DNA of 64,000 bases from Escherichia coli (GCF_003790525.1 NZ_CP033633.1), one strand, 5' to 3'; numbered from the stretch's first letter, positions 10,312 to 49,271 are shown. Numbers and translations: made by a program. Notes: generated by a model not told the origin, from the letters alone.

Positions 10312-13300
10312 CAGAGGTGATATCCCTGCTTACGGATGAGTTCCGCAGCCAGATCATGGATGACGTTTTCACTGTCATGTGTACGGGCGCGGTGTTCTAT
10401 CAGTGAGGTGGCTGAACCACGGGGAAAGTTTTCTGCCAGGATCTGGCGTGCCCGCAGTGACCCGAGCTCCTGCGTCAGCGCACGTCTCAGGGCGCTGTCT
10501 TTGGGTGAGGAATTCAGAGCCCACAGCTCCAGTGGACCGAGAGTGAATTTCAGGATCCGGGCCAGCGTACCGTTTTTTACACGGAACACAGCCAGTACCG
10601 GGACACCGCTGCCATCCGGTGCAGCCCCTTCCGGCATTTTCAGAAAGCGCCGCAGGGTGACTTCAGGGACACCAAAATTATCCCGCAGAAACGGAATTTC
10701 GTCAGGGCGGTAACGCAGCAACCAGAGGGTGTTGGCGGATTTGAGAACTGCCGGTGGATAGTCCTGCAGTAGCTGGGTGCTCAGCACTGTGCGTATCCCG
10801 AACTTACGCTGCTCCAGCTCCTGGGTGTCCAGGGCTTCCCAGATGAAGTTGATCCCTTTTGCATTGTGCAGTTCGTCATAGACTTTGGTCTTGACCTCCT
10901 GATCAAGCTGTTCAATGCGGCGGAAAATCACCTCATGGTAGCGTGGGTCGAGATTTTTCCGTATTTCCTCCTGATACTGCGGCAGGACAAAATCCCCGCC
11001 GGCGATTTGTCCTGCCAGCAGGTACATGATGCCGGTGCGCAGACGCCCGGCAGGTGTCTTGTCACCGGCCACATTGTTCAGATCAACGGCCACAACGCGG
11101 GTGTCGGGGCTGAGCATAAACCGGGTACAGCCGGACATCATCGGGTAGTCACTGTGTCCCTGATCGAGGGCACGGCGGATGTAGTCCAGTAACAATTCTG
11201 CTGAGTTATCGCGCTGAACTGTGCCGAACACATCCCGGATGGATGGCTGTCCCAGCAGGGCGGACATTTCAGCCAGCAGGGGCATGGCCTGGTAGTGTGC
11301 CCGCTGGGCTGCGGGGATATTGCCAGCCATATGCAGCATGTCCCTGATTTCAAACCAGGTGGCAGCATTCCACCATCCGGCATCATGTTGTTCTGCGATG
11401 CCACTCTCTTCCAGGGCGAGATCCACAAGGGGCTCTGTTCCTGCACGGTACAGTCTGGGGTTGTTTTCGCCATACTCCCTGAAGGCCAGATCCACCAGGT
11501 TGCTTATGATTTGCCGGGTGTCACCGGGATTACAGGGCTGACCGGTGCCGGTATCCACGCACAGTGCGCAGAGTACAGATACCATGAAGTTCTTTTCCGG
11601 GGTGGCGGGTTTTTTAGCACCGTACATCACATCAAACAGGTTACGGGTGTGTTCCGGATCATTGCTCAGAATGATCCCCACGGCTTCGTCCTTTCTCTGC
11701 TCCGGCAGGCTGTCACGGATAAGCTGTACCAGTCCCTGTGCACTGAATCCCTTGTCGATATAGGCAATGAAAGGCAGGTTCTTCTGGGCTGAGGCTATCT
11801 GGATCTCCGACAGTGCGTTGATGAGTACCGATTTGCCCAGACCGGGTGCGCCGGGCGTCAGTTCCGTGTGCTTGTTCTGTTGTGACGATGCCAGCGCGAC
11901 CTCCCATGCAGAGCCGTCTTCGGTGTGCATCATCAGATTTCCCTGTCCCCGCCAGACAGAGCCGGCCCTGTTCAGGGGAAACAGGGAAAGGGCGTGTGAA
12001 AGGGGCGGGTAAAGGGGGACTGGACCGGAACCGTGGGAGGCCGCCAGAACCGTGTTCACCCAGGCACGTCTCGGATCACCGAAGGTGGTGGTGGTGCCGC
12101 ATACTCCCCAGCCTTCCAGCGCAGATTTCAGGAGAGCCTGGTTGCGGGTACAGACTTCCCGGCTGTTTCCCCATGTGGTGGCAACAATGGTCATGATACA
12201 GACCGGATCATGTTTGTTGATGTCATTCAGCATCATCACCGAGTCATACATGGGCCGGAGAGGGGAAATAAAGCTGCTGTAGGTCAGCAGGGTTTTCTTG
12301 ACCCCAAGCGCCTTCATGCCGCCGGGCATCAGATCCATCCGGATACGCCAGGGGATTGCGCGGGGCACATCCCTGACCAGCTGGTTGAATGTCCGCAGAT
12401 TCTGGGGTGGCAGGGTAATGGCGACCATACCGTGCCAGAGGTCACCGGCCTTTATCAGGCTGCCGTGTGTTTCAGGCTGTGTGGTGAATAACTGCAGATT
12501 CAGCGACGGTGCGTGGAATACAGAGGTATCCTCGCCCTGTCGCCAGCCGGCAGGACGGGCATCTTCAGGCAGATGAGGCTGCCATACTGCAGGTGTGCTG
12601 TTGCGCTCCAGTTGACGGCGGATTTCCCGTCCCACTTCATGAATATCCATCAGGCGAACCAGCAGACCATCAGAATCATGTGTCAGGGCCTGCTCCAGCG
12701 TGTCCAGAAAGGCGTCATGCCGTATTTTGAGTGCGGAAAGTGTCCAGCGCCATGGATCCTGCGCAAATCGGGCTGGCGGAGCGTGTTCAGCGAGTTTCCT
12801 GATACGGGTCTGGTGGTCCTTGCGATCGGTCCGGCTCAGCAGTTCTTCAGAGCTCCAGACGGTCAGCCAGCAGCGTTCCCGGACAAGCCAGGGGGTGAGC
12901 GTGGTGACTTTTTCATCCAGAACGTCCTGAAGCAGGATCCCCGTACGTGCGATGGATTTTCGCTGGGGTAAGAGCATGGCTTCGATTTCATCCCTTCCAC
13001 GCTCCGGATCGCGTTCGAAAACAAAACTGATTTTGTGACCGGTGTTTTTATAGGCAGTGTTCATTCGCTCTGCCAGCGCTGTTATCAGTGATTCCAGTGT
13101 GCCGGGGGCTGTCAGGTCCGGGTTTTCATCCATTTCTTTCAGGGCACCGCTGATTTCAAAGACGGAAAGGTAATACCCCTGTTTTGTGGTGGCAATGTAG
13201 GGGGCTTTCAGCCAGGGGCGGCGTTCGCGGTCCTGCTGGTCCAGACCGATGACGGTGTGCAGATCACAGTAATCGGGGAAGAATGCGGAAACGGAATACC

Positions 13301-36662: not shown

Positions 36663-37829
36663 TTATTGTTTCAGCATGTCGCTGATACTGTAGATGGCAG
36701 ATATCATGTTAAGAATAAAAAAGAAGACAAAACCTCCTGATATACCGGTAATAATTAATCCAATTCGTTTTACCCGTTTTTTTGCTTCCTCCAGCCACTG
36801 ATCGGCATAGAGTGCCATGGTTGCCACTCTGTCCTCCCTTTCGGAGTTCAGGAGCAGTTTATTGATGCATATTCTGGACGGAAAATCGTAACCGGAATTT
36901 CGCATTGCTGTGGCCAGATTCTGACCGGATAATACATGTTTTCGTATTGCCTGAATTCTCTCCTTTAACCATTTATTCTTTTCTGCACCTTTTTCCATTC
37001 GGAGCAGCGCCTGCGAAAGAGGAATATTAATCTGCAGCATGGATGAAATACTGAACAGATAATTCACCCCGTGTAAGGTCTGATACAGTGACCAGGGGGG
37101 AGCCTTGTCCAGCATCCTCCGGCCGGGGCCGGTATACCGGCTGAATGAAAAACGGATCAGAAGCGTCAGGGCGAAAATGGTCCCACAGAGCCAGAATCCG
37201 TACCCGATGAAAAATTCCGACATACCGGCAAGCAATTTCATCTGGAATGACCATTTATCTTCTGAAGCAAACGCACTGACGATGGGGATGATACGGGTAT
37301 GGGCGTTGTACATATTCACCACACAGAGCGAAAGCAGCAGAAGGGGGTAGAGGCAGACGGCAATGAGGCTGGATGTCATTTCCCGCCGGGCTTTAACGGT
37401 TCTGGCCACCTGGAAAAGGGCGTCGGCAATATTTCCGCGCTCTTCCCCGTTTCTGATTAACGTGGCTTCCTCCGGTGGCACCCAGGTTAACAGGGCACCG
37501 GATAACATGCCGCTGGCTTTGATGGAATCGATGCATTCTTTTGCCAGAAAATACATGCCGGATGTGCCTTTCTTTTCACCAAAATCGGTTTCGATCTCGC
37601 AGAGAAATTCGAGTGCACGCAGGGACGGCGTTCCGTCACGTATCATGCCGCCCAGGGCTTCGTAGAACTCCACCCGGTTCAGGGCAAAGGTTTTTCTGGC
37701 CATCCAGATGGTCAGCGCTGTCAGCTCAATGTCGGTGCTGTTGAGTTTTTCCAGAAATTTCATATCAGTGCAGCAGCGTATAGCTGTCCTCATCGACGGG
37801 AGATATATAATGGGCCGCCAGCGGATCAA
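36663..37829 (-). CDS. pilR: type IV pilus inner-membrane platform protein PilR (GspF/PilC family)
   Basis: 388 aa polytopic protein with duplicated GspF-like architecture; overlaps pilQ 3' end so true start is probably internal. Confidence 0.75.
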   Translation of the reverse strand: MIRWRPIIYLPSMRTAIRCCTDMKFLEKLNSTDIELTALTIWMARKTFALNRVEFYEALGGMIRDGTPSLRALEFLCEIETDFGEKKGTSGMYFLAKECIDSIKASGMLSGALLTWVPPEEATLIRNGEERGNIADALFQVARTVKARREMTSSLIAVCLYPLLLLSLCVVNMYNAHTRIIPIVSAFASEDKWSFQMKLLAGMSEFFIGYGFWLCGTIFALTLLIRFSFSRYTGPGRRMLDKAPPWSLYQTLHGVNYLFSISSMLQINIPLSQALLRMEKGAEKNKWLKERIQAIRKHVLSGQNLATAMRNSGYDFPSRICINKLLLNSEREDRVATMALYADQWLEEAKKRVKRIGLIITGISGGFVFFFILNMISAIYSISDMLKQ

Positions 37830-39273
37830 CCTGTCCGCTGTTGATTTTTCCCAGCAGATGCTGATTACGGGTCATTCCGCCCAGTTCCCGGTGCCAGTAT
37901 GTTCTGGCCTCAATACGCCCCTTTTCCCGGTACAACTGGAAAAAACGGGCATCCGGGGAGATGACTTCTGCGATCACTGTTCGTCCTGTCACGCCACGCC
38001 AGCAGTGCGGGCAGCCTTCATGATTTCGCAGATATACCTGGTCCGGGTTGCAGACGCTTTCCACCAGGCGCCGTTCATTATCCGTGCGCTCGGTAGCCAC
38101 CTCATGCCAGGGGCGACGGCAGTGCGGACATATCAGCTGAACCAGACGCTGGCTCAGCAGGCCAATGAACAGTTGCGGGTCGGCAATCATCCTGGCCTGT
38201 ACCCCCTCCATCTCAAGACGTTCGAGGATGTTAATCGGGTCGTTCGCATGGATGGTGGTCAGCATCAGATGCCCGGTCATGGCGGCTTTTATTGCCGTAA
38301 TGGCGGAATCGTGGTCACGGATTTCGCCGTTCAGGATCCCGTCAGGGTCAAGACGTAGTGCTGATTTAATGGAGTCCACCCAGCCCTGTGCGGAATCCAT
38401 GACGGCAGTCTGAATGGCACCGGGTATACGGCCCTCTGGCGGGGATTCAATGGTGAACAGCCTGCGACGGGGCAGAAGAATACCGCCGGTATTGTTGAAG
38501 CCGTACTGTTCAAGGTACGCCGCAGAGGCGGTTCTCAGCGTGGTGGATTTTCCTGAACCTGTTGGTCCTGAGAGCGTGATAATACCTTCAGGGCGCTGCA
38601 GAATACGGCGCAGGGTGCGCTCCTGCTCAGGGTGGTAGCCCAGCATGCTGAAGGTCGGGATTTGCAGACTGTCATCCTTGATCAGACGGAGCACAGCATA
38701 GAGGCCGCCCACGCAGGGATAGTGGGAGTAGCGTGCACCAAACAGACCGGCCAGTTTCAGGTACTGCTCTGAAAGACGCGCATCCTGAGGCACCCCGGGA
38801 TCAAACTGTGTGCCCTTGATGACGTCGGTCATGCCGGAATAGGTGGCCCCCAGTAATTCGAGGCCTTCTTCTTTCCGGAGGATATCGAGCACTTCCAGTT
38901 CGCCGTGAACCCGGGCTTCCACATAGGTGAAGTCCGTGTTGTCTCGTCCCGGGGTCATATGAAGGTCTGAGGCACCAAGAGAGGCAGAATGGCGGATATA
39001 GCCGAGCATTTTCTGCTGTACCGGGTTAATGACGCTTTCATCACCGGCGGTTGTGGTGTCCTGTCTGAGGCGGGCTATCACATCCAGGGTGGTGAATTCA
39101 AAGTCTCCCACACGCCCCTGATGACGTGCGCGCAGGCGGGTCAGATATTCCTGGACGGCACGCAGATGTTTTTTTCCCTCCACGACCCTGACCCGCAGAT
39201 GACCGGTTTTATCTGTGTCGATAGCCACATAATCCAGAATGTCATCCGGTGGCAGGTCTGCAGGATCCAACAT
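37765..39273 (-). CDS. pilQ: type IV pilus assembly ATPase PilQ (GspE family)
   Basis: 502 aa; Walker A GPTGSGKSTT; Cys-x2-Cys pairs typical of GspE-family ATPases. Confidence 0.85.
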   Translation of the reverse strand: MLDPADLPPDDILDYVAIDTDKTGHLRVRVVEGKKHLRAVQEYLTRLRARHQGRVGDFEFTTLDVIARLRQDTTTAGDESVINPVQQKMLGYIRHSASLGASDLHMTPGRDNTDFTYVEARVHGELEVLDILRKEEGLELLGATYSGMTDVIKGTQFDPGVPQDARLSEQYLKLAGLFGARYSHYPCVGGLYAVLRLIKDDSLQIPTFSMLGYHPEQERTLRRILQRPEGIITLSGPTGSGKSTTLRTASAAYLEQYGFNNTGGILLPRRRLFTIESPPEGRIPGAIQTAVMDSAQGWVDSIKSALRLDPDGILNGEIRDHDSAITAIKAAMTGHLMLTTIHANDPINILERLEMEGVQARMIADPQLFIGLLSQRLVQLICPHCRRPWHEVATERTDNERRLVESVCNPDQVYLRNHEGCPHCWRGVTGRTVIAEVISPDARFFQLYREKGRIEARTYWHRELGGMTRNQHLLGKINSGQVDPLAAHYISPVDEDSYTLLH

Positions 39274-39369
39274 AAGGCCTCCTTACGGGCAGCGGCGCCC
39301 GGAAAATATGTTTTCTGTTATTAAGCGAGGGAAATAATCAGTTCTTCTGCGGAGAGAATCTGGACATTT

Positions 39370-40044
39370 TCAGCACAGGCTTAACAGTGTAAAAATGATT
39401 ACGCCTCCAAAAGCGAATAACAGGGGAATGTTTTTCTCCGGCTGTGTTGATCTCAGCGTTAATACCGGTGTGGCGAGAGCGTAAAAAATAATACCTGCGG
39501 TATAAATAAAATAAGGTGTGATGCCGGACAGATTACATACACTGGCGAATATCATAAGCATGACGGCAACTACCGATAAAATAATGGAAGTATTCTTCCA
39601 TTCACCAGATGGTGTAAGTGAAATGATATCGCCATCCTGTTTATAGTTCGTGTTCAGCTTCAGGAAATGACGGATATCTTTCAGCGTGTTCAGTTTCTGC
39701 TGGATCTCTTCCACAAGTTCCTGTCTGTCGGTTTTTTCACGGAGCAGCTGGAATTTTGTCTCCCTCAGTACAGATATAATACGGTCCACCTGGCCGGGGG
39801 AGGGATAGTAATGATGTTCGAGCATCCACCGGATATCGGCGATTAACCGGTCAGTTACCGGTGTATTACCGTTGTTAATGAGAGGTGTTTCGTGCATCCA
39901 CTGAAATATGCGGTAGATATGTCGCTTAACAAAAATAAAATCATCGGTGGTTTTATTCTCCAGCATGAGATATATCCCGTCGAGTGTTAATAATAAAACG
40001 TCCCGGGTGTGAGGTGATTTGTGATGTATTGTACGGAATATCAT
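39370..40044 (-). CDS. hypothetical protein with C-terminal TM segments, 224 aa, extra gene inside pil operon
   Basis: AT-richer than flanking pil genes; larger intergenic gaps (96 and 131 bp) than the tightly coupled pil genes. Confidence 0.4.
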   Translation of the reverse strand: MIFRTIHHKSPHTRDVLLLTLDGIYLMLENKTTDDFIFVKRHIYRIFQWMHETPLINNGNTPVTDRLIADIRWMLEHHYYPSPGQVDRIISVLRETKFQLLREKTDRQELVEEIQQKLNTLKDIRHFLKLNTNYKQDGDIISLTPSGEWKNTSIILSVVAVMLMIFASVCNLSGITPYFIYTAGIIFYALATPVLTLRSTQPEKNIPLLFAFGGVIIFTLLSLC

Positions 40045-40175
40045 TTCTGCACTGTAATCGTTTACGCAGGTGATATATCACACCAGAGTAAATACAGCGG
40101 AATGAAGCTGTAGAGTGACCAGAAAAGCCCGACGGGATCTTTTGCCCACAGGCATAAGAATGTCAGTCCGGTGCA

Positions 40176-40616
40176 TCATGCGCCGGCAAGTGCCGCGCAT
40201 AATTCAGCGCCTCCGGAATTGCCGCTCTTCATCATATAACAGAGCGCGATCAGCAGTGGGATAATGAAGACGAGCGGCAGGACAAAGGATTCGGCTGCGG
40301 ATATCCATTCCCGGTAACGCCAGCGGTCGTTTAATCTGTCGGCATCATATTTCAGACAGTTGCTCAGGAACGCCAGATCGTTCATGAGGGGGGCGTCCTG
40401 GCCATACTGCGCCGCGAGGCGCATTCTGGCACCCCACAACCGGGCACTCAGGGCACGGAGTTGTGCCGGGGTGACCTGTTTTCCCCGACAAAGTTGTACC
40501 TGTAATTGTGTTGCCTCGTGGACAATATCTGTGTGGTTCACCCCATATTCTGCAGCGGCTGTTTCCAGGTCACGGATGATCAGGCTGAGCCAGGATATCA
40601 GTTCACTGATGTTCAT
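40176..40616 (-). CDS. hypothetical protein with C-terminal TM anchor, 146 aa, extra gene inside pil operon
   Basis: ORF between pilP and pilQ; soluble N-terminal domain then hydrophobic helix. Confidence 0.4.
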   Translation of the reverse strand: MNISELISWLSLIIRDLETAAAEYGVNHTDIVHEATQLQVQLCRGKQVTPAQLRALSARLWGARMRLAAQYGQDAPLMNDLAFLSNCLKYDADRLNDRWRYREWISAAESFVLPLVFIIPLLIALCYMMKSGNSGGAELCAALAGA

Positions 40617-40664
40617 TGTCGTTCATCCTTTTGTACGGACAGCCGCCTGTACTGGCGGCCGGTT

Positions 40665-41117
40665 TCATGGTCGCAGGGTTTTTCTGATGCCGGACTGCTC
40701 CAGTACCACACTGTCCGGTGTGATTTTCTCCACGAGATAAGGGGTTCCGGGGATGTTCTGGCCCGTCTTCACATCGGTGATGTGTCCACCCGAAAGTTCT
40801 ATCCGGGCTCTCAGCTGAGGCTGTACACCAAATATTTCTGTCAGACGGGGGGATGTCGCCGTCGACGGGGCAGTCGGGATGGCGGACGTGCTTTCCTGCG
40901 GACGACCGGGCTCTGCGGGAATACCCTGCTCCAGCATGCGCAGTTCATGACGGATTTTCTCTCTCGCCAGCATGGCTTCATACAGGGCTGTTTCGTCCTG
41001 TATCCGCTCAATCTGCAGTTGCCGGGGACTCTGTTCCTCTGCGTTTCCGGTTGTGGCCATTGCCGTTGCCGGTAACAGCAGCGCTGAAACCAGAAGGGCT
41101 TTTGTTTTAGCGTGCAT
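40665..41117 (-). CDS. pilP: periplasmic pilus assembly protein PilP
   Basis: 150 aa with signal peptide MHAKTKALLVSALLLPATAMA; size matches R64 PilP as recalled. Confidence 0.5.
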   Translation of the reverse strand: MHAKTKALLVSALLLPATAMATTGNAEEQSPRQLQIERIQDETALYEAMLAREKIRHELRMLEQGIPAEPGRPQESTSAIPTAPSTATSPRLTEIFGVQPQLRARIELSGGHITDVKTGQNIPGTPYLVEKITPDSVVLEQSGIRKTLRP

Positions 41118-42402
41118 AATATTTACCTGTAAATTGATAGTGGAAACGACCGTTCTCCAGTTGTCGTGTGACAGAGATAAAACGGACAGAAGGCGCCTTC
41201 AGACGTTCAACCAGCTGGTATGCCGGGAGTAGCGTCTGTATCTGAAGGTCATACTCTTTCCACGGAGGCTGGATAATATTTCCGTTTTCATCGGTGACGC
41301 TGTTACTGACCTCCTGCCAGTCCAGCGTCAGTGGCATTGACTGAGCAAGCGTGGTCAGTTGTTCTTGCAGGACAGAGCTTTCCGGCAGAGCATCAACGTC
41401 GACGGGATGTTCAGGCAGGCGGAAGCTGACTGGCAGGCCAATGCCGCCGGTCTTTCCTTCCGGCATCACAATAAAGGGGCGGGTACCCGTCATATCACTG
41501 ATGCGCCGGATGAAGTCAGTCACTGTCGCGCCAGCTGTATTAGTGTACGAGGCGCGAAGATTGCCGCTGCCGCCGTCAGTTGAACATTCAGCCAGCGAAT
41601 AACGCCATCCGGAGGCAGACAGTGGCAGTGACGTCCATATGTCAGCACATCCCTGGATAAAGGCGTCGGTTTCGGGGAGTCCGGGCCAGGGGGGACTGAT
41701 TTGTTCCTCTGTGACCTGTCGGGCAGCTGCTGCCTGCGCGGCTTGTTCAGTCTTCCACCGTTCATAATACTGCCAGCCGTACCATGCAGCGCCGAGAAGG
41801 GCGATGATCAGCGAGACAGTGATGAACTGCGCTCCCCGGGATACCGGATTCAGGCGCGCGGCAGCCGGATGTTTACCAGAGCCGGTCAGGGTGGACAGCG
41901 GCAGGGCCTGATTCTGATCGCCTGCTGAAAATGCCACCGGTTCATAGCGTGTCCAGCCCTGCTCCGGTTCGGTGTTGATGGAAAGAAAGGTATCCCGGGC
42001 TTCACGGACCTCTTCTCCGCTTCCCACCAGGTCACTGACGAGAACACCGTCGACAGCGGAAACAAAGCTGTAGCGCGGTGTTTCTCCGGGTAACGTCAGT
42101 TCCGTGATGGCATAGCCGCCATGTTCAAGCAGTGGCAGGATCAGCAGGGCGAGGGAGAAGCACTGACGGGGTTTTCCGGGCAGTATGCGGCGACTGACAG
42201 TGGCTACCATGGTGTGGGTATCGGCATCTTCATTACTGAGATACTGACAGGCCAGGAAAAGGTCGGCTTTCTGTGCCCGGGCAAAGTCGCGGGCATGCCG
42301 GTACTGTGAGGGCAGTGTTTTCCATTCCAGCCCGGCCAGAAACACATTGCGCCCTGCCGGCAGCGGAAACACCTGCCGCTCTGTCGGTGAAATATCCGTC
42401 AC
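41107..42402 (-). CDS. pilO: pilus assembly protein PilO
   Basis: 431 aa, size and position match R64 PilO. Confidence 0.55.
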   Translation of the reverse strand: MTDISPTERQVFPLPAGRNVFLAGLEWKTLPSQYRHARDFARAQKADLFLACQYLSNEDADTHTMVATVSRRILPGKPRQCFSLALLILPLLEHGGYAITELTLPGETPRYSFVSAVDGVLVSDLVGSGEEVREARDTFLSINTEPEQGWTRYEPVAFSAGDQNQALPLSTLTGSGKHPAAARLNPVSRGAQFITVSLIIALLGAAWYGWQYYERWKTEQAAQAAAARQVTEEQISPPWPGLPETDAFIQGCADIWTSLPLSASGWRYSLAECSTDGGSGNLRASYTNTAGATVTDFIRRISDMTGTRPFIVMPEGKTGGIGLPVSFRLPEHPVDVDALPESSVLQEQLTTLAQSMPLTLDWQEVSNSVTDENGNIIQPPWKEYDLQIQTLLPAYQLVERLKAPSVRFISVTRQLENGRFHYQFTGKYYAR

Positions 42403-42422: not shown

Positions 42423-44042
42423 TCAGATGATATTGGGCGTGATCAGCACCACGAGAATGGTGTCGTCGTTTTCACTGTTGATCCCACCGCCAAGACCGAA
42501 GAATCCCGGCGTGCCTACACCCTGTTTTCCGCTGCGACGTCCTGACTGCTGGAAGCCACTGATAATGACCGTCTGCCCGGATTTCAGATCCACGGTCTGA
42601 TTGATGGTTTTCAGATCCACATTCGGCAGCTGGGCTTTACTTCCACCGCTCTCATAATTCTCAATAACCGGTTTGTCGGAGAGACTCATGGAATAGAGCA
42701 ACTGCAGTGTCTGTGAGTCCGGGAGAATGAACGGCAGAAGGGTCATGTTAAAACCGGTGGTGATGGTGGCCGCATTCAGGGAGGTGGATGAGCCGACATT
42801 GGCAGTGGTATCCGTCGTCACACTCTCGATGTAACTCTGCTGATTGGCGATCTGCATTGGCACCGGCGTCAGGTTTTTGGTGACGGCAGAGTGCTGGGTC
42901 ACCACACTGACAACCCCCTGGGAAGACAATGCTTTCAGGAAGGCTTTTGAACCGGTGAGTTTACCGTCCACAATGGAAACACCACCTGTGATGGCATCAC
43001 TGGCTGCACTGGTGAATGTGCTGCCGAGACTCAGTCCCAGCGTTCTGTCGCTGAAGACTGCGTTCCAGTCGATACCGGCCTGCTCATTGCGGGTTTTCCG
43101 GATACTCAGAATTTCCACATTCAGCACCACCTGACGTTTCATCTCTTCATTGCGTTTTTCAATGAATGCCCGGACCGTTTCCAGAACCTGTGGATTATCT
43201 GTGACGGTTATAAAGCCCGTGGACATGAACATGCGTCCGATACCCGGGGTCAGCATTGATGTGACCGCATTTTTCACATCCTGATACAGCGCAGACTTCA
43301 TATCCACGGTGGTGGTCTGGGTATTGCTGGCATCACCGGAAATGGCATCTGATGCACTGCCTCCTGATGAGCCGTTTGAGGACATGGTGCCGCTGACCAC
43401 AGTGGCGTTATAGGTCACCTGACTGTCCATATAGGTGATGGGGAAGGTCTGTGTCTCGAGATAATAGAAGATGATATGCGAGCCGTCATAGCGCCAGGAT
43501 ATACCGAGACGGGAGGAGACCGCATTCAGCAGGGTCGTCAGGCCGGAGGCATTCAGTTCAGACAGTGCTGCGGTATTTCCCGGCAGACGGGATGATGGCG
43601 TGTCAGATGCGCCAATGGCGGCAAGGGGAACCATGCCGCTTGCATCCGGTGGGGGTAACGCGCCCTGGATTTGTTGTGTGCTGCCGGTTGTGGATGTATT
43701 CAGGTATGTCAGTACATCAGGTGTGATCCGTACAGGAATATGGCAGCTTTCCGTGATCCGCTGAACCACCTGCTGAAGGGTGATGCTCTGACGGGTATGA
43801 ATGACAATGGGACAACCGGGAACGGTTTTGCCGGTGTTTTTATCCATGACCGGACGGGGATTGATCCATTGTCGAGAGGATTCCTTAACAACCGGCGTCC
43901 GGGTTCGCAGATCAGACATCATTTCCCGTGCCCGTTGTTGTTCCGCAACGGCTTCCTTTCTTGTGCTCTCAAGCTGTCTGTAACTGGCACAGCCCTGTAA
44001 CAGAGCGGCGGCAATCATAATGGCAAGAATTTTTTTATTCAT
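42423..44042 (-). CDS. pilN: secretin-family lipoprotein PilN
   Basis: 539 aa; lipobox ALLQGCAS; secretin-like C-terminus ...DDTILVVLITPNII. Confidence 0.8.
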   Translation of the reverse strand: MNKKILAIMIAAALLQGCASYRQLESTRKEAVAEQQRAREMMSDLRTRTPVVKESSRQWINPRPVMDKNTGKTVPGCPIVIHTRQSITLQQVVQRITESCHIPVRITPDVLTYLNTSTTGSTQQIQGALPPPDASGMVPLAAIGASDTPSSRLPGNTAALSELNASGLTTLLNAVSSRLGISWRYDGSHIIFYYLETQTFPITYMDSQVTYNATVVSGTMSSNGSSGGSASDAISGDASNTQTTTVDMKSALYQDVKNAVTSMLTPGIGRMFMSTGFITVTDNPQVLETVRAFIEKRNEEMKRQVVLNVEILSIRKTRNEQAGIDWNAVFSDRTLGLSLGSTFTSAASDAITGGVSIVDGKLTGSKAFLKALSSQGVVSVVTQHSAVTKNLTPVPMQIANQQSYIESVTTDTTANVGSSTSLNAATITTGFNMTLLPFILPDSQTLQLLYSMSLSDKPVIENYESGGSKAQLPNVDLKTINQTVDLKSGQTVIISGFQQSGRRSGKQGVGTPGFFGLGGGINSENDDTILVVLITPNII

Positions 44043-44072: not shown

Positions 44073-44510
44073 CTAATTCATCCAGAGGATGACGTGATCG
44101 GGGATCACCGACGGAAGTGTGACGGAAAGCGCTCTGCCGGCGGTGTCCAGCAGCCGGCCGTTTTCCACCCTGCCGAGGAGGGCAGAGTCATGACTCTGTT
44201 CCCTGAGGGCGGCCATCAGGCCCGGGGTTTCTGTGGCCCAGACAAAAACACGTTGCTGGCTGATGATATGACTGACGGTATCCGTCCCGGGAAGCCCGAG
44301 CTGAGCGGATGTCAGCCGCCCTCCGGCTGTCCGTCGTTCCGGATTCTGATGCAGGTAATCATTGATGGCGTTCATATAACGAATGAACGTTGCTGCCTGT
44401 TGTGTGTTTTCTGCGGCCTGATGACGGTGTTCGCTGCGGGAGAGCTGACTGGTGAACCAGAAATTGCCGGTGGTCGTGATGACCATGATGAACACGATGA
44501 ACCAGCCCAT
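44073..44510 (-). CDS. pilM: pilus assembly protein PilM
   Basis: 145 aa with N-terminal TM; size matches R64 PilM. Confidence 0.5.
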   Translation of the reverse strand: MGWFIVFIMVITTTGNFWFTSQLSRSEHRHQAAENTQQAATFIRYMNAINDYLHQNPERRTAGGRLTSAQLGLPGTDTVSHIISQQRVFVWATETPGLMAALREQSHDSALLGRVENGRLLDTAGRALSVTLPSVIPDHVILWMN

Positions 44511-44514
44511 AAGG

Positions 44515-45585
44515 TTATTCCTGTGGACGATCTGTCACCCGCAGCAGACATTGTGCTGTGCTGGTCCGGGCATACAGCGGTTTTTCCACCGGGGTGTAGA
44601 GTGCAAATAGCTGTTCCAGCGCCTGGCGGAAACTGCCGGTGAAAACCAGAGGAGCATCGATGCTGTAGTTGACAGGTGTTTCCCAGCGCAGTGTCCATGT
44701 GCCGTGCGGGCATTTTTCGGATGATGTCCAGCGGGCCAGTCCGTCTTTCAGGGTGGTCCCCTTTTCCATTTTCCACTGCCGTGGCGGTATGACCTTCTGC
44801 GGTGGTGTCACTACCGGTTTCGTGGCCACCGGGGCTGGCGTGGTTGTTCTGCTCTCTGGTGTTCCGGATGTCCCGGTGGTGGTCTGAGCCCGGGATACGC
44901 TGACGGCAGGTGGTACCTGTGCCTGGTCTGCCGCTGTTCCGGTTGTGCTCCTGAACGGATTACGTGGTGTGTCCGCTGTTTTCTGTGAACCCTGCGGTGT
45001 CGTGACGTCGACCGGCGGTGTTGCAGAGGTCGTGACAGTCAGTATTTTCCTGTTCCAGTCCATATGTCCGTAAAGCTGCTGGCCGGCCAGCAGCGCATTC
45101 AGTGCCCGGTGCCACTGGTCATTAACGGACCAGGAAGGGAGGCGTTTGTTCAGTGCCGGTGTGGCGGCATTCTGCTGGCGGAACTGCCAGCCGGTTGGCA
45201 GCAGCTGGCGTATCCAGTCACTGACGGTGCGCTGACGTGCTTCACGTAAATAAACGACGGATGAGGGACCGGGCTTACCGGTCATAACCAGTGCAGACAG
45301 CGGTGTGGCCTGAAGAAGCGGGCGGGGAGGCAGTGCGGTACTCTGGCTGCTGACAGTGGTTGAGGGTGTCGCCGTTGTTGTCGGACGGGGCGGTGTCACA
45401 GGGCGGGTCACCGGTGGCGGAAGCAGACGTTTTTGCGTATGGGTGATAATGGCAGCACTTTCGCGAATTTGTCCGTCGACGAACACCAGAGCCGGAGGCG
45501 TGGTATCCGGAACAGGCGTGGCATTAAATGCCGTACAGCCGCTGAGTAATGACGGCAGAAGGAGTGTCAGTGATTTCTTTTGCAT
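44515..45585 (-). CDS. pilL: pilus assembly lipoprotein PilL
   Basis: 356 aa; lipobox LLSGCTAF; Pro/Thr-rich linker; size matches R64 PilL. Confidence 0.6.
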   Translation of the reverse strand: MQKKSLTLLLPSLLSGCTAFNATPVPDTTPPALVFVDGQIRESAAIITHTQKRLLPPPVTRPVTPPRPTTTATPSTTVSSQSTALPPRPLLQATPLSALVMTGKPGPSSVVYLREARQRTVSDWIRQLLPTGWQFRQQNAATPALNKRLPSWSVNDQWHRALNALLAGQQLYGHMDWNRKILTVTTSATPPVDVTTPQGSQKTADTPRNPFRSTTGTAADQAQVPPAVSVSRAQTTTGTSGTPESRTTTPAPVATKPVVTPPQKVIPPRQWKMEKGTTLKDGLARWTSSEKCPHGTWTLRWETPVNYSIDAPLVFTGSFRQALEQLFALYTPVEKPLYARTSTAQCLLRVTDRPQE

Positions 45586-45706: not shown

Positions 45707-46102
45707 ATGATAAAGAAGATGTGGCGTTATTTACGGCAAATTGATAAGTATGAATTGCTGCAGCAGGTGATTTCAGTACATGAAGTGGAACTGCTCAGGA
45801 AAATGATGACAGATTCATTATTAGGGTGCTCAGTAGGATATGTGTTTTCGAAAATACTGAAGATATTCTTTCTGCGTTTTATTCAGTCTGAGGGGGGATG
45901 GGATATTATTACTTACTTTTTGTGGATGCTGGGAATACTTATTGTCATGGCCGCGCTGTTTATCTGGATGTGCGCCGCTGTATGCTATGAGCTTCGGATG
46001 TATAAAATAAAAACAGGAAGGGAGAACGATATATTATTCTGGGTGTGGATTCTTCTTTTTGATGTCGCGGTTGTATTTTCGCTGGGTAATGTTATCTGGT
46101 GA
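45707..46102 (+). CDS. hypothetical membrane protein, 131 aa, AT-rich
   Basis: Plus-strand ORF in an AT-rich block upstream of pilL; two or three TM segments. Confidence 0.3.
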   Translation: MIKKMWRYLRQIDKYELLQQVISVHEVELLRKMMTDSLLGCSVGYVFSKILKIFFLRFIQSEGGWDIITYFLWMLGILIVMAALFIWMCAAVCYELRMYKIKTGRENDILFWVWILLFDVAVVFSLGNVIW

Positions 46103-46534
46103 TTATGGGTTCAGTGACATATGGAAAAAGATAAGTGCGAACATTGATACTGAAGAATAATATATCCAGGAATAGAAAAACATGAATTTCGGAGATGGTT
46201 TCTTCTGTCTCCTGTTTTTCAGGGGAGTCTGTGGGTCAAATGTTATCAGCGTCATTAAAGGATACCCTTTCATAAGAATAAAAATATAGACGCATAAATG
46301 AGCGTAAAGAGGTAACCTGTCCTGCCAGAACAGAATCATCATGATGACGGCAAGATGAAATGTCGTTACATTGATATAATAAAACCAGCTGTATTTACGC
46401 AGATACTGTTGGATATTCACGCTGTCAGCATGCGGTTCTGGTGAACAATTTATGCAAAAACAGAAGAAAGAAATGATGATGAACACGGTCAGAGTGACCG
46501 GTAATACAGTCACAAGCAGAAAGAGTATGGACAT
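46103..46534 (-). CDS. hypothetical polytopic membrane protein, 143 aa, AT-rich
   Basis: Converges on the preceding ORF with zero spacing; could alternatively be a divergent PilK-like gene. Confidence 0.3.
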   Translation of the reverse strand: MSILFLLVTVLPVTLTVFIIISFFCFCINCSPEPHADSVNIQQYLRKYSWFYYINVTTFHLAVIMMILFWQDRLPLYAHLCVYIFILMKGYPLMTLITFDPQTPLKNRRQKKPSPKFMFFYSWIYYSSVSMFALIFFHMSLNP

Positions 46535-46929: not shown

Positions 46930-48624
46930 TTAAACCTGTTGTGGTTCTGAGTTATCCGGAGTGGTTACCGGTTCGCTGACATCCGGAACCTTTTCCGGGG
47001 CAGGCATGACCAGTGGACGTGTCAGGGCTGTAAGTCCTTCACCGGATAAACCCACCTCTTTCAGCAGGGAGTCGATGAGCGGAGCCTGTGTACGGTAAGC
47101 CAGAGCGGCGGTTACTGCCTGTTCAGCGAGATTTCCGCCACTTATGTCGGTTGTTGCTGTTTTACCGCGGGTAACACCGCCATTCAGACCATCCACCTGA
47201 ATGATTTTAATACCGTCAATGGATTTCATTGGTTCTGTGGACTTCTCTATGACGGCAGGTAATGCATCCAGCAGGGCAAGACGGAAGCGGAGGCTGGTCT
47301 GCTCATCCGAAAGCACGTTAATGGCATCGTTCAGTGCGCGCTGTGCTTCTGCTTCTGCCAGACCTTTCTGACGGGTGGCCTCCGCCAGTTCAATAATTGC
47401 TGCTGCCTGGAGTTCGGCTGCTTCTTTTTCAGCCTGTGCGCGAACCGTCAGTTCAACCGCTTTCGTTTCAGCTTCCTGAGCAGCAGCAATCAGGGCAACC
47501 TGTTTGGTACGGCCGGCCTCTGCAGTCTGGCGGGTGGTTTCCACATCCTGCTGGGCCTGTACGGCCTCAGCCAGTGCTTTACTTGCCCGGGCTTCTGCCT
47601 GTGACTGCTCTTCCGATTTTGCCGCCACGGCAATGGCTCTGGCCTGGCTGGCGATTTCGGTTGCCTGCTGTTGTTCAATTTCCCGTATGGCCACTTCCCG
47701 TTCGGCTTCGACCTGGCGGGTACGCACTATCTGCTGTCGTTCGATTTCGGCTTCCTCTATCTTACGTTCAGCCAGAATTCGCGCGGATTCTGCTTCACGA
47801 CGTCGTTCAGCTTCAATAGCAGCAATACTGGCACTCTGCTCTGCCGTACGGGTTTTTACCCGTTGTTGTTGCTCCAGAGTCATGAAGGCTTCCTGCTGTT
47901 CAATCTCCAGACGTCGGGAGAGTGCATCCCGGTTTTTTTCCCTGATGGCCACTTCAACATCCTGCTCAACTTCGTTGCGTTCGCGGCGACGACGTTCTGT
48001 TTCCTGGGTCAGAAGGGTCAGGCCTTCAGCATCAAAGGCATTGTCAGGATTAAAATGTACCCGTGCAGTCTGGTTGAAACTTGTCAGCGACACACTTTCA
48101 AGCTCCAGACCGTTTTTGGATAAGTCTTCCGCAACGGTGTTCTGCACACCCTGAACAAAGTTCTCGCGGGCATCCTGTAAATCCTGCATGCTCATTCTGG
48201 CCGCCGTGGCCCGTAGGGCATCAACAAATTTATCCTCGACCAGACTACGCAGATCTTCAGGTGTGAGCGTGCGTTGTCCCAGCGTCTGGGCTGCAGTGGA
48301 TATTCCTTCGGCTGATGGTTTTACCCGAAGAAAAAAGGCAACGGCAACATCAACACGCATGCGGTCGCGGGTTATGAGACTTTCAGCCGCTGCACGACTG
48401 ACTTCCAGCTTCAGGGTGTTCATGTTGACGGGAATTGTTTCGTGAAAAATGGGCATAACAATTGCACCGCCACTCATTACCACTTTTTGGCCTCCCAGAC
48501 CTGTGCGGACAAAGGCCTGCTCTGCCGATGCCCGGCGGTACAGGCGGGCAAATATCAGCCCGATAACGAACAGGGTGAGGACCAGCGCTATAACGGTAAA
48601 CAACCATCCCGGAAGATTAAACAT
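46930..48624 (-). CDS. flotillin-like SPFH/band-7 protein (YqiK-like)
   Basis: 564 aa; N-terminal TM, SPFH-like domain, then long Ala/Glu/Arg/Gln-rich coiled coil; paired with an upstream NfeD-like gene. Confidence 0.8.
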   Translation of the reverse strand: MFNLPGWLFTVIALVLTLFVIGLIFARLYRRASAEQAFVRTGLGGQKVVMSGGAIVMPIFHETIPVNMNTLKLEVSRAAAESLITRDRMRVDVAVAFFLRVKPSAEGISTAAQTLGQRTLTPEDLRSLVEDKFVDALRATAARMSMQDLQDARENFVQGVQNTVAEDLSKNGLELESVSLTSFNQTARVHFNPDNAFDAEGLTLLTQETERRRRERNEVEQDVEVAIREKNRDALSRRLEIEQQEAFMTLEQQQRVKTRTAEQSASIAAIEAERRREAESARILAERKIEEAEIERQQIVRTRQVEAEREVAIREIEQQQATEIASQARAIAVAAKSEEQSQAEARASKALAEAVQAQQDVETTRQTAEAGRTKQVALIAAAQEAETKAVELTVRAQAEKEAAELQAAAIIELAEATRQKGLAEAEAQRALNDAINVLSDEQTSLRFRLALLDALPAVIEKSTEPMKSIDGIKIIQVDGLNGGVTRGKTATTDISGGNLAEQAVTAALAYRTQAPLIDSLLKEVGLSGEGLTALTRPLVMPAPEKVPDVSEPVTTPDNSEPQQV

Positions 48625-48650
48625 AGTGAGAACCTCTGTATATGTCGGGA

Positions 48651-49271
48651 TTAAAGAACATCCGGCCAGGGATTCAGTTCGCCCAGCCAGCGGGAACCGG
48701 AAAGACGGCAGACAATAATCACTTTGTCTCCTCGTCTGAATTCTTTCCCGGCCTCCGGCTCCAGCAACAGGTAATGAACCTGCCCGAAGCGGTCTGTGAA
48801 GCGACCTTCACAGGGGGAACCCGCCACTGCGTGATAACCGGTGATGGTGGCCATACAGCCGATGAATGCCTCCTCGGTGAGCGCCGTTGTTTCATCACGG
48901 GGTAACCAGGGGGCAATCAGTCTGCCGGTGCGGTGTACGAGAGGACATGTCAGCAGCAGGCAAAGTGGTGTAAGGAGAATGTTCGGGGCAGGAGCCTGCA
49001 GCAGATGAATAATAAGACCCTGCAGGAGAATGCCGGATATACCAAAAAAACCTGCCAGCATACAGAGGACGATCAGCAGGGGGATCCGTCCGATGTTCAG
49101 CCAGTCCAGCGCCTCTCCTGTCAGCCCCTCCGGTAAATCAGGTGTATCCATAGCTGAAGAGAGGGAGTGTCCGCAGAGCAGGGCGATAAGTTCAGCGATA
49201 CCAGTAAGCAGAACAAAAGTCAGGGCTGCCAGATAGGGTGCGTTATACGCGGTAAGTAACGCCAGTGTCAT
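48651..49271 (-). CDS. NfeD-like membrane protein (YqiJ-like)
   Basis: 206 aa; polytopic N-terminal region plus C-terminal soluble OB-like domain; immediately upstream of the flotillin gene. Confidence 0.65.
   Translation of the reverse strand: MTLALLTAYNAPYLAALTFVLLTGIAELIALLCGHSLSSAMDTPDLPEGLTGEALDWLNIGRIPLLIVLCMLAGFFGISGILLQGLIIHLLQAPAPNILLTPLCLLLTCPLVHRTGRLIAPWLPRDETTALTEEAFIGCMATITGYHAVAGSPCEGRFTDRFGQVHYLLLEPEAGKEFRRGDKVIIVCRLSGSRWLGELNPWPDVL

Follow-up and report, generated by a model that had tools for sequence, protein, structure and literature searches.

Extra genes between pilP and pilQ in a thin-pilus operon of Escherichia coli: a candidate accessory module of conjugative transfer operons

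Introduction

Among the closest described systems to the locus treated here is the thin-pilus operon pilI-pilV of plasmids R64 and ColIb-P9. This work concerns two genes, orfA and orfB, that lie between pilP and pilQ of a type IVb thin-pilus operon in a 64,000-nt stretch of Escherichia coli DNA (GCF_003790525.1, NZ_CP033633.1); the whole stretch is called the window, its coordinates are used unless another contig is named, and every gene of the orfA/orfB locus is on the minus strand. The operon of the window resembles that of R64/ColIb-P9 in the order of pilL to pilV, in its shufflon-type PilV and in the nearly equal sizes of its products (window against R64: PilL 356 and 355 aa, PilM 145 and 145, PilO 431 and 431, PilP 150 and 150), an agreement that the initial annotation had noted correctly. 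It differs at the pilP-pilQ junction, which in R64 (NC_005014) measures 10 bp and holds no gene, and orfA and orfB stand outside the defined pil gene set of R64. The gap is also free of genes in an IncI2 plasmid (24 bp) and in two I-complex plasmids (84 and 103 bp). Since these reference operons have no gene at this place, orfA and orfB are extras there, as initially proposed; the R64 gene inventory on which that proposal relied was right, and no homolog that would contradict it was found at pilP-pilQ in the I-type operons checked.

Other described systems offer partial likenesses. The exclusion proteins TraS, ExcA and Eex are small and encoded in transfer regions; transfer does not require them, and they diverge far more quickly than the machinery genes nearby. 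Compared with this group (TraS/TraT of F, ExcA of IncI1 and Eex of SXT), orfA and orfB are likewise small, located in a transfer region and faster-evolving than machinery genes. Their layout and location fit a small membrane protein of a transfer region and their dispensability is deduced from natural losses; the resemblance is generic. Unlike a recognised exclusion gene, neither has detected sequence or profile similarity to these proteins (no NCBIfam or Pfam match), their exclusion role is putative only, and excA of R64 sits after traY and not at pilP-pilQ. The tra operon of F contains nested non-essential genes, including artA, which are also small open reading frames (ORFs) among essential transfer genes; artA runs against its operon, as does a third gene, orfC, in several versions of the module described below. 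The sequences of the nested F genes are, however, unrelated to orfA, orfB or orfC, and F itself is without the module. All things considered, orfA and orfB are best classed with a kind of gene that is already known, the accessory genes nested in transfer operons.

The observations presented here make it, on balance, probable that orfA and orfB represent a non-essential, conjugation-linked accessory module that is neither a core part of the pilus nor a recognised defence system. The initial annotation had missed the paralogy of the two genes, the pseudogene state of orfA and the third, antisense gene of the fuller module forms. No description of these ORFs was found in the searchable literature (on pil differences of IncK2 plasmids and on genes between traU and trbC), and the paralogy, the specificity for transfer operons and the existence of an antisense partner seem not to have been reported before.

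OrfA and OrfB as distant paralogs

A BLASTP comparison of orfA with orfB shows no similarity. When the two family alignments are compared with hhalign, they match with a probability of 98.4% (E 7e-15, 161 columns), and Foldseek searches against AFDB50 retrieve, with the model of each protein, the family of the other, in both directions. A relative from an F-type operon (L025) joins the orfB motif LLRAEKFRQ to the orfA C-terminal motif LWAKDWVGLYWSLYSFIPL. On this profile and structural evidence, orfA and orfB are distant paralogs.

Each protein has a soluble domain at its N-terminal end and membrane helices at its C-terminal end, a layout on which hydropathy and AlphaFold2 structure prediction agree and which the initial annotation had already described. 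In the OrfB model (mean predicted local distance difference test score, pLDDT, 87.4), residues 5-105 form a four-helix bundle, and the membrane helices comprise 122-146, 152-172 and 180-197. In that of intact OrfA (pLDDT 72), the four-helix bundle occupies 3-99, with helices at 104-130, 134-157 and 161-181. A signal peptide is absent and the only basic loop sits between membrane helices 2 and 3, so that, by the positive-inside rule, the helical bundle would be cytoplasmic.

The two window genes share the features that define the family: a length of ~180-205 aa, an N-terminal four-helix bundle with three C-terminal membrane helices, significant profile similarity, and a position within a conjugative-transfer operon in the orientation of that operon. 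Neither protein matches a PDB, Pfam, NCBIfam, PADLOC or PHROG family, the Foldseek matches are all uncharacterised proteins of Escherichia, Salmonella, Klebsiella, Erwinia and Serratia, and family members are named only “hypothetical” or “uncharacterized” in the databases. orfA and orfB thus appear to belong to an undescribed family of small, predicted inner-membrane proteins. That they are real genes follows from the existence of diverged homologs and from the ratios of non-synonymous to synonymous substitution (dN/dS) given below.

Relatives in the transfer operons of three machineries

A search with the orfB profile of 1.8 billion representative proteins recovered only 44 clusters (representatives at 50% clustering), and the relatives found belong to Enterobacterales only. 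About 20 genomic contexts were inspected, and all those long enough to judge are conjugation operons; in one short contig (L023, 1.9 kb) the orfC/orfB pair is visible with no flanking operon. The plasmid matches to orfA are typed as conjugative in 163 of 164 cases, and those to orfB in 147 of 149. No match was found in 50,697 phage records.

The positions within these operons vary. IncF plasmids of E. coli, Salmonella and Klebsiella carry adjacent homologs of orfA and orfB between traU and trbC (31-44% identity), a place where the F plasmid has a gap of 8 bp and lacks the module. Relatives in operons of the mating-pair-formation type MPF_I (Dot/Icm-like) follow a traR-like DUF6750 gene or lie between a traK-like IcmT gene and an LPD7 gene, and some MPF_I operons hold two or three tandem paralogs. 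On E. coli chromosomes, relatives are found in the pil operon of an integrative conjugative element (ICE). Most relatives reside in F-type or Dot/Icm-like tra operons with no thin-pilus genes nearby. The genes diverge quickly, since orfA shows 39% and orfB 45% identity where TraU shows 80%. Profile hidden Markov models (HMMs) detected no family member in the 46 kb of R64 scanned or in the regions of pCTX-M3 examined.

This confinement to the transfer operons of three machineries speaks for a family function connected with mating or with the way the mating apparatus is expressed, and the fast divergence together with the tandem arrays of paralogs gives it a resemblance to specificity-type proteins such as those of entry exclusion and immunity.

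The pilP-pilQ locus of the window

The type IVb thin-pilus operon lies between 33.5 and 45.6 kb of the window on the minus strand, and the ORF list gives its order as pilL, pilM, pilN, pilO, pilP, orfA, orfB, pilQ, pilR, pilS, pilT, pilU and pilV. The features from pilL to pilQ are as follows (pil coordinates from the ORF list).

44515-45585, minus strand: pilL
44073-44510, minus strand: pilM
42423-44042, minus strand: pilN
41107-42402, minus strand: pilO
40665-41117, minus strand: pilP, 150 aa, the upstream neighbour, named PilP in near-identical plasmids and equal in length to R64 PilP
40617-40664, minus strand: spacer after pilP with a short GC stem-loop (GGCCGCC...GGCGGC) followed by the ribosome-binding region of orfA, AAAAGGATGAACGACA, read from the sequence
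40176-40616, minus strand: orfA, truncated allele of 146 aa, ending at a premature TGA (40176-40178) by comparison with p1517k_K
40062-40175, minus strand: untranslated tail of orfA, 37 sense codons and the original stop, found by translating through the stop codon
39967-40061, minus strand: spacer between orfA and orfB, the place of the opposite-strand orfC in ICE and IncF relatives, where the nucleotide alignment of ICE and window breaks
39370-39966, minus strand: orfB, 198 aa from the start chosen by PGAP (the mechanical ORF, 39370-40044, has 224 aa)
39274-39369, minus strand: spacer after orfB and leader of pilQ, containing a strong ribosome-binding site (TAAGGAGG); the 3' part is kept in empty-site plasmids and in the ICE
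37765-39273, minus strand: pilQ, encoding a 502-aa ATPase, the downstream neighbour (also from plasmid annotation)

The spacers around orfA and orfB measure 48, 131 and 96 nt, whereas the other pil genes overlap or are at most 30 nt apart, and the orfB region has a GC content of 0.40-0.47 against 0.55-0.60 in the pil genes; wider gaps and an AT-richer second gene had both been noted at the outset. The 1.4-kb pilP-pilQ interval is 99.7-100% identical to that of ~110 plasmids of E. coli, Salmonella and Shigella typed IncK2/Z and MPF_I, in all of which orfA and orfB are labelled “hypothetical protein”; the plasmid of the window is likewise of IncK2/Z type. A consensus scan of the coding strand of the cassette, which is weak evidence, revealed no convincing promoter or terminator of its own, so that both genes are most likely made along with transcription of the thin-pilus operon; co-transcription would be the simplest reading.

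Two further regions near the operon deserve mention. Positions 46930-49271 (minus strand), between pilI and a traC-like regulator gene, hold a gene of the flotillin family (564 aa) and an NfeD-like gene annotated “OB-fold” (206 aa); the pair is present in pLH10-b-1-A and missing from the otherwise similar p1517k_K, and is a further cargo insertion inside the transfer region. The pilL-pilI interval (45707-46534) holds two convergent ORFs of 131 aa (plus strand) and 143 aa (minus strand), with a GC content of ~0.38-0.40 and rich in membrane helices, which occupy the place of pilJ and pilK in R64 without BLAST similarity to R64 PilJ or PilK.

A truncated orfA and a constrained orfB

The initial annotation had given the two products as 146 and 224 aa. 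The ORFs are real; their sizes need correction, the first being a truncated form of a 184-aa protein and the second probably having 198 aa. The window differs from p1517k_K (NZ_MW800640), an IncK2 plasmid whose orfA is intact, by three substitutions in the pilP-pilQ interval, one of which, at 40176, changes TGG to TGA, and the 146-aa ORF is consequently the W147* form of a protein that, if intact, would be encoded by 40062-40616. Because of this truncation, the 131-nt gap between orfA and orfB is mostly dead orfA tail. Judged by the model of the intact protein, the bundle and membrane helices 1 and 2 remain in truncated OrfA, and the LWAKDPVGLFWSLYSFIPLY motif, the most conserved of the family, is lost with the tail; the invariant columns in alignments A1 and A3 are K159, D160, V162, W166, S170, I172, L174 and Y175. 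A 49-nt probe over the W147* site matches exactly in 6 of 112 plasmids and is one base off in the rest, which marks W147* as a derived minority allele; pLH10-b-1-A is one plasmid that carries it. Against the E. coli ICE copy, orfA has a dN/dS of 0.62, which suggests relaxed constraint. In the window, orfA is a pseudogene. RefSeq/PGAP lists the truncated gene (146 aa, WP_128999396.1; L029 20903-21343, equal to window 40176-40616) as an ordinary coding sequence and not as a pseudogene.

The start of orfB is most likely the ATG at 39966 (M27 of the 224-aa ORF): this is where PGAP places it, and all 29 aligned family members begin at the same column with an invariant M1. In the same comparison with the ICE copy, orfB has a dN/dS of 0.23, pilO of 0.23 and pilP of 0.28; orfB is under purifying selection comparable to that on pilO and pilP, and it is 97-100% conserved in ~100 plasmids.

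OrfC, an antisense partner absent from the window

In the ICE, in many IncF loci and in many MPF_I loci, a gene of 200-235 aa, orfC, sits directly upstream of orfB, on the other strand. Its product would begin with membrane helices and end in a conserved domain that holds the motifs SHL...R...L...G and LN-x-x-YGGKTRYR. Of the 85 plasmid records in which orfC was detected, 82 are conjugative, and many leave the gene without annotation. Copies include:

L014 (E. coli ICE) 10509-11339, minus strand: orfC
L003 9459-10349, minus strand: orfC
L004 9474-10178, minus strand: orfC
L035 3746-4435: orfC

The gene is frameshifted in L002 and L019. The module takes several forms. MPF_I operons have C/B, the ICE and IncF plasmids have A-C-B, and A-B is the form of the window and of a single IncF plasmid of Klebsiella, whose A and B are 4 bp apart; B also occurs alone. 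No trace of orfC was found in the window by tblastn and HMM searches, and it is missing from other IncK2 copies too. At most orfB would still work in the window, with orfA inactivated and orfC missing.

Four OrfC proteins matched no PADLOC family (E up to 1), and orfC likewise gave nothing significant in Pfam, NCBIfam, PHROG or the PDB. Two small membrane proteins of the IncI1 transfer region, PilK and TraD of R64, have a similar layout, with N-terminal membrane helices and then a C-terminal domain. The orfC profile run against R64 gives weak matches, in a small search space, to TraD (E 0.004; L012 42350-42916) and PilK (E 0.05; L012 40693-41283), centred on a common I-x-x-SHL...R...L...G motif, which hints that orfC, TraD and PilK may form one remote family. 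In contrast, orfA and orfB do not resemble R64 PilJ or PilK.

History of the pilP-pilQ and traU-trbC junctions

Sister plasmids without the cassette preserve traces of it. In pSH286-2 the empty gap keeps ~36 nt homologous to sequence downstream of orfB. In pE2855-1 the junction is placed differently, and the ribosome-binding region of orfA (AAAAGGATGAAAGACA) is joined directly to the pilQ leader; a functional-looking ribosome-binding region without its ORF is best taken as a relic, and so indicates a deletion. A coherent history would be that the cassette was inserted long ago in the K/B/O/Z branch and later deleted from pE2855-1. The word “inserted”, used in the initial annotation, is apt in so far as the genes are extra with respect to the reference operons; it would cover only part of the history, the cassette being old in its branch and lost or degraded several times.

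In two other sister IncK2/Z plasmids, pECOED and pE16EC0406-2, the first ~260 nt of orfA are kept (83% identity, unannotated) and are followed by a toxin-antitoxin pair on the other strand:

L005 4763-5285 and L020 5216-5738, opposite strand: RelE/ParE pair at the pilP/pilQ gap of pE16EC0406-2 and pECOED

This pair, which has replaced most of the orfA/orfB cassette, shares with orfA and orfB the intergenic site; it differs from them in its strand, in belonging to recognised Pfam/PGAP families and in encoding soluble proteins.

The chromosomal copy has been rearranged. The A-C-B cassette of the E. coli ICE lies between two directly repeated, 94% identical copies (L014 9755-9927 and 11951-12123) of 173 nt from the junction between the 3' end of pilO and the 5' end of pilP, the upstream copy being a 34-codon stump of pilP, and the start of orfA carries a perfect 21-nt tandem duplication (AAAGGATGAACGACAATGAAC, L014 9965-10006). 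The ICE cassette carries the IncK-type spacer after pilP and the IncK-type pilQ leader. An independent insertion at pilO/pilP was considered and rejected, as the IncK-type spacer and leader and the 173-nt duplication mark the ICE copy as a recombinational derivative of the pilP/pilQ arrangement. As a separate observation, the 3' 1.27 kb of pilQ (window 37702-38974, L014 12805-14077) is 92.8% identical between plasmid and ICE, against 72-75% for pilO and pilP, a contrast indicative of mosaic recombination between the pil operons of the plasmid and of the ICE.

Decay is also seen elsewhere in the family: two orfA alleles (P0006 and P0007) are disrupted at the N-terminus, and IncF copies show an IS3 insertion in orfA or frameshifts in orfB or orfC. 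The pilP/pilQ and traU/trbC junctions behave as recurrent cargo sites. The module is often decayed and appears to be dispensable: the natural deletions, the replacement and the W147* mutation are seen in otherwise intact conjugative plasmids, which speaks indirectly against a need for the module in thin-pilus formation or liquid mating.

Proposed role and alternative explanations

As an accessory module, orfA and orfB would be tandem distant paralogs encoding small inner-membrane proteins expressed with the thin-pilus operon. Their role would be exerted at the inner membrane and linked to mating, and may be of a specificity type, such as exclusion or immunity (self/non-self discrimination, donor protection); the same view leaves room for modulation of the transfer machinery, while a structural role would be unlikely. 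Such an exclusion-, immunity- or control-type role is put forward tentatively. A still more speculative picture, to which we give somewhat less credence, is that orfC and orfB, on opposite strands and with orfA as a duplicated extra, form a mobile module that has colonised MPF_I, F-type and type IVb transfer operons. It could be a new class of entry exclusion or donor immunity, with divergence and tandem arrays setting the groups, or a switch in which constitutive, antisense OrfC is countered by OrfB when the transfer genes are on.

Several points weigh against a conjugation-linked function. Such cassettes could be found in transfer operons because they are tolerated and expressed there, and not because they serve conjugation; a toxin-antitoxin pair fills the same pilP/pilQ gap in a sister plasmid; the frequent pseudogenisation suggests a weak or conditional benefit; and two of the contigs inspected (L026 and L027, ~1.2 kb) are too short for their context to be judged.

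The strongest competing explanation, which we consider possible and yet rather improbable, is that the module is hitch-hiking cargo without a conjugation role: a selfish or defence element, acting in abortive infection, in superinfection exclusion of pilus phages or in addiction (with OrfC as toxin and OrfB as antidote), that uses transfer-operon transcription and a permissive gap. In its favour are the RelE/ParE pair at the same place, the AT-richness of orfB relative to the operon, the presence of the module at several different junctions, its dispensability and decay, and the divergent orfC/orfB layout, which is like that of a two-gene selfish module. Against it, PADLOC returned no family for orfA or orfB (E up to 1), and no match for A, B or C came from PADLOC, Pfam or PHROG. 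No recognisable type II toxin-antitoxin domain was found in orfA or orfB with Pfam and NCBIfam, both being membrane-anchored paralogs. No phage record carries a copy, the informative contexts are all transfer operons and none is a defence island or prophage, and orfB persists without orfC in several plasmids, including the window, which argues against an obligate toxin-antidote pair. The idea of abortive-infection effectors, which the initial annotation had raised from the layout, found no backing, with neither a PADLOC match nor a phage-borne relative.

That annotation had also framed the choice as one between accessory pilus components and cargo. The genes are indeed uncharacterised and their site behaves as a cargo site, RelE/ParE having settled there; a role specifically in the pilus did not hold up, given relatives in tra operons without thin-pilus genes. 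We regard it as improbable that orfA and orfB are true extra components or regulators of the thin-pilus machine of the K/B/O/Z branch, for instance as membrane adaptors for the adjacent PilQ ATPase or for the PilR platform. A membrane-tethered cytoplasmic bundle is a plausible layout for an adaptor, the genes share the orientation of the operon directly upstream of pilQ, orfB is under purifying selection, and the cassette is kept in ~110 closely related plasmids. Against this, sister I-complex plasmids with similar pil operons lack the genes or carry a replacement, orfA is truncated in the window, and most relatives lie in F-type or Dot/Icm-type tra operons to which no pil genes are adjacent. 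R64, moreover, builds thin pili without genes at this junction; its thin pili were reportedly treated by Yoshida and colleagues in 1999. Finally, the proteins are not similar to R64 PilI, PilJ or PilK: BLASTP and tblastn comparisons with these three proteins and with 46 kb of R64 gave nothing significant. For the same reason, the idea that orfA and orfB are relocated copies of pilJ and pilK, which in R64 lie upstream of pilL and which IncK2 plasmids lack there, was rejected.

It is very improbable that orfA and orfB are both pseudogenes in decay that no longer have a role in this plasmid, for although the nonsense mutation removes the most conserved motif of orfA, the dN/dS of that gene is raised, orfC is absent and many relatives are disrupted, orfB is intact and conserved across its ~100 plasmids, its dN/dS against the ICE copy is low and its AlphaFold2 model is confident.

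One further candidate, the pair orf35/orf36 of pCTX-M3, was considered as a counterpart of orfC/orfB. Deletion of these genes is said to raise transfer. The candidates found there, in the tra region and on the opposite strand, are annotated as Hha-family and H-NS-family proteins, pCTX-M3 shows no orfB or orfC match in the regions examined, and the pair was rejected.

Significance

Two matters of annotation follow from the analysis: a truncated orfA is recorded as an ordinary coding sequence, and orfC is often not annotated at all. Since the module is partly decayed in the window, the practical importance of this particular copy is modest. The accessory module favoured here has a wider bearing, because plasmids of the IncK2, IncF and IncI-like groups rank among the main vehicles of resistance genes in E. 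coli, Salmonella and Klebsiella, and yet some of the genes in their transfer operons are without a name or a family. The orfA/orfB family may supply an accessory function in mating that has so far gone unrecognised, for instance exclusion, donor protection or control, and this proposal is concrete enough to be tested.

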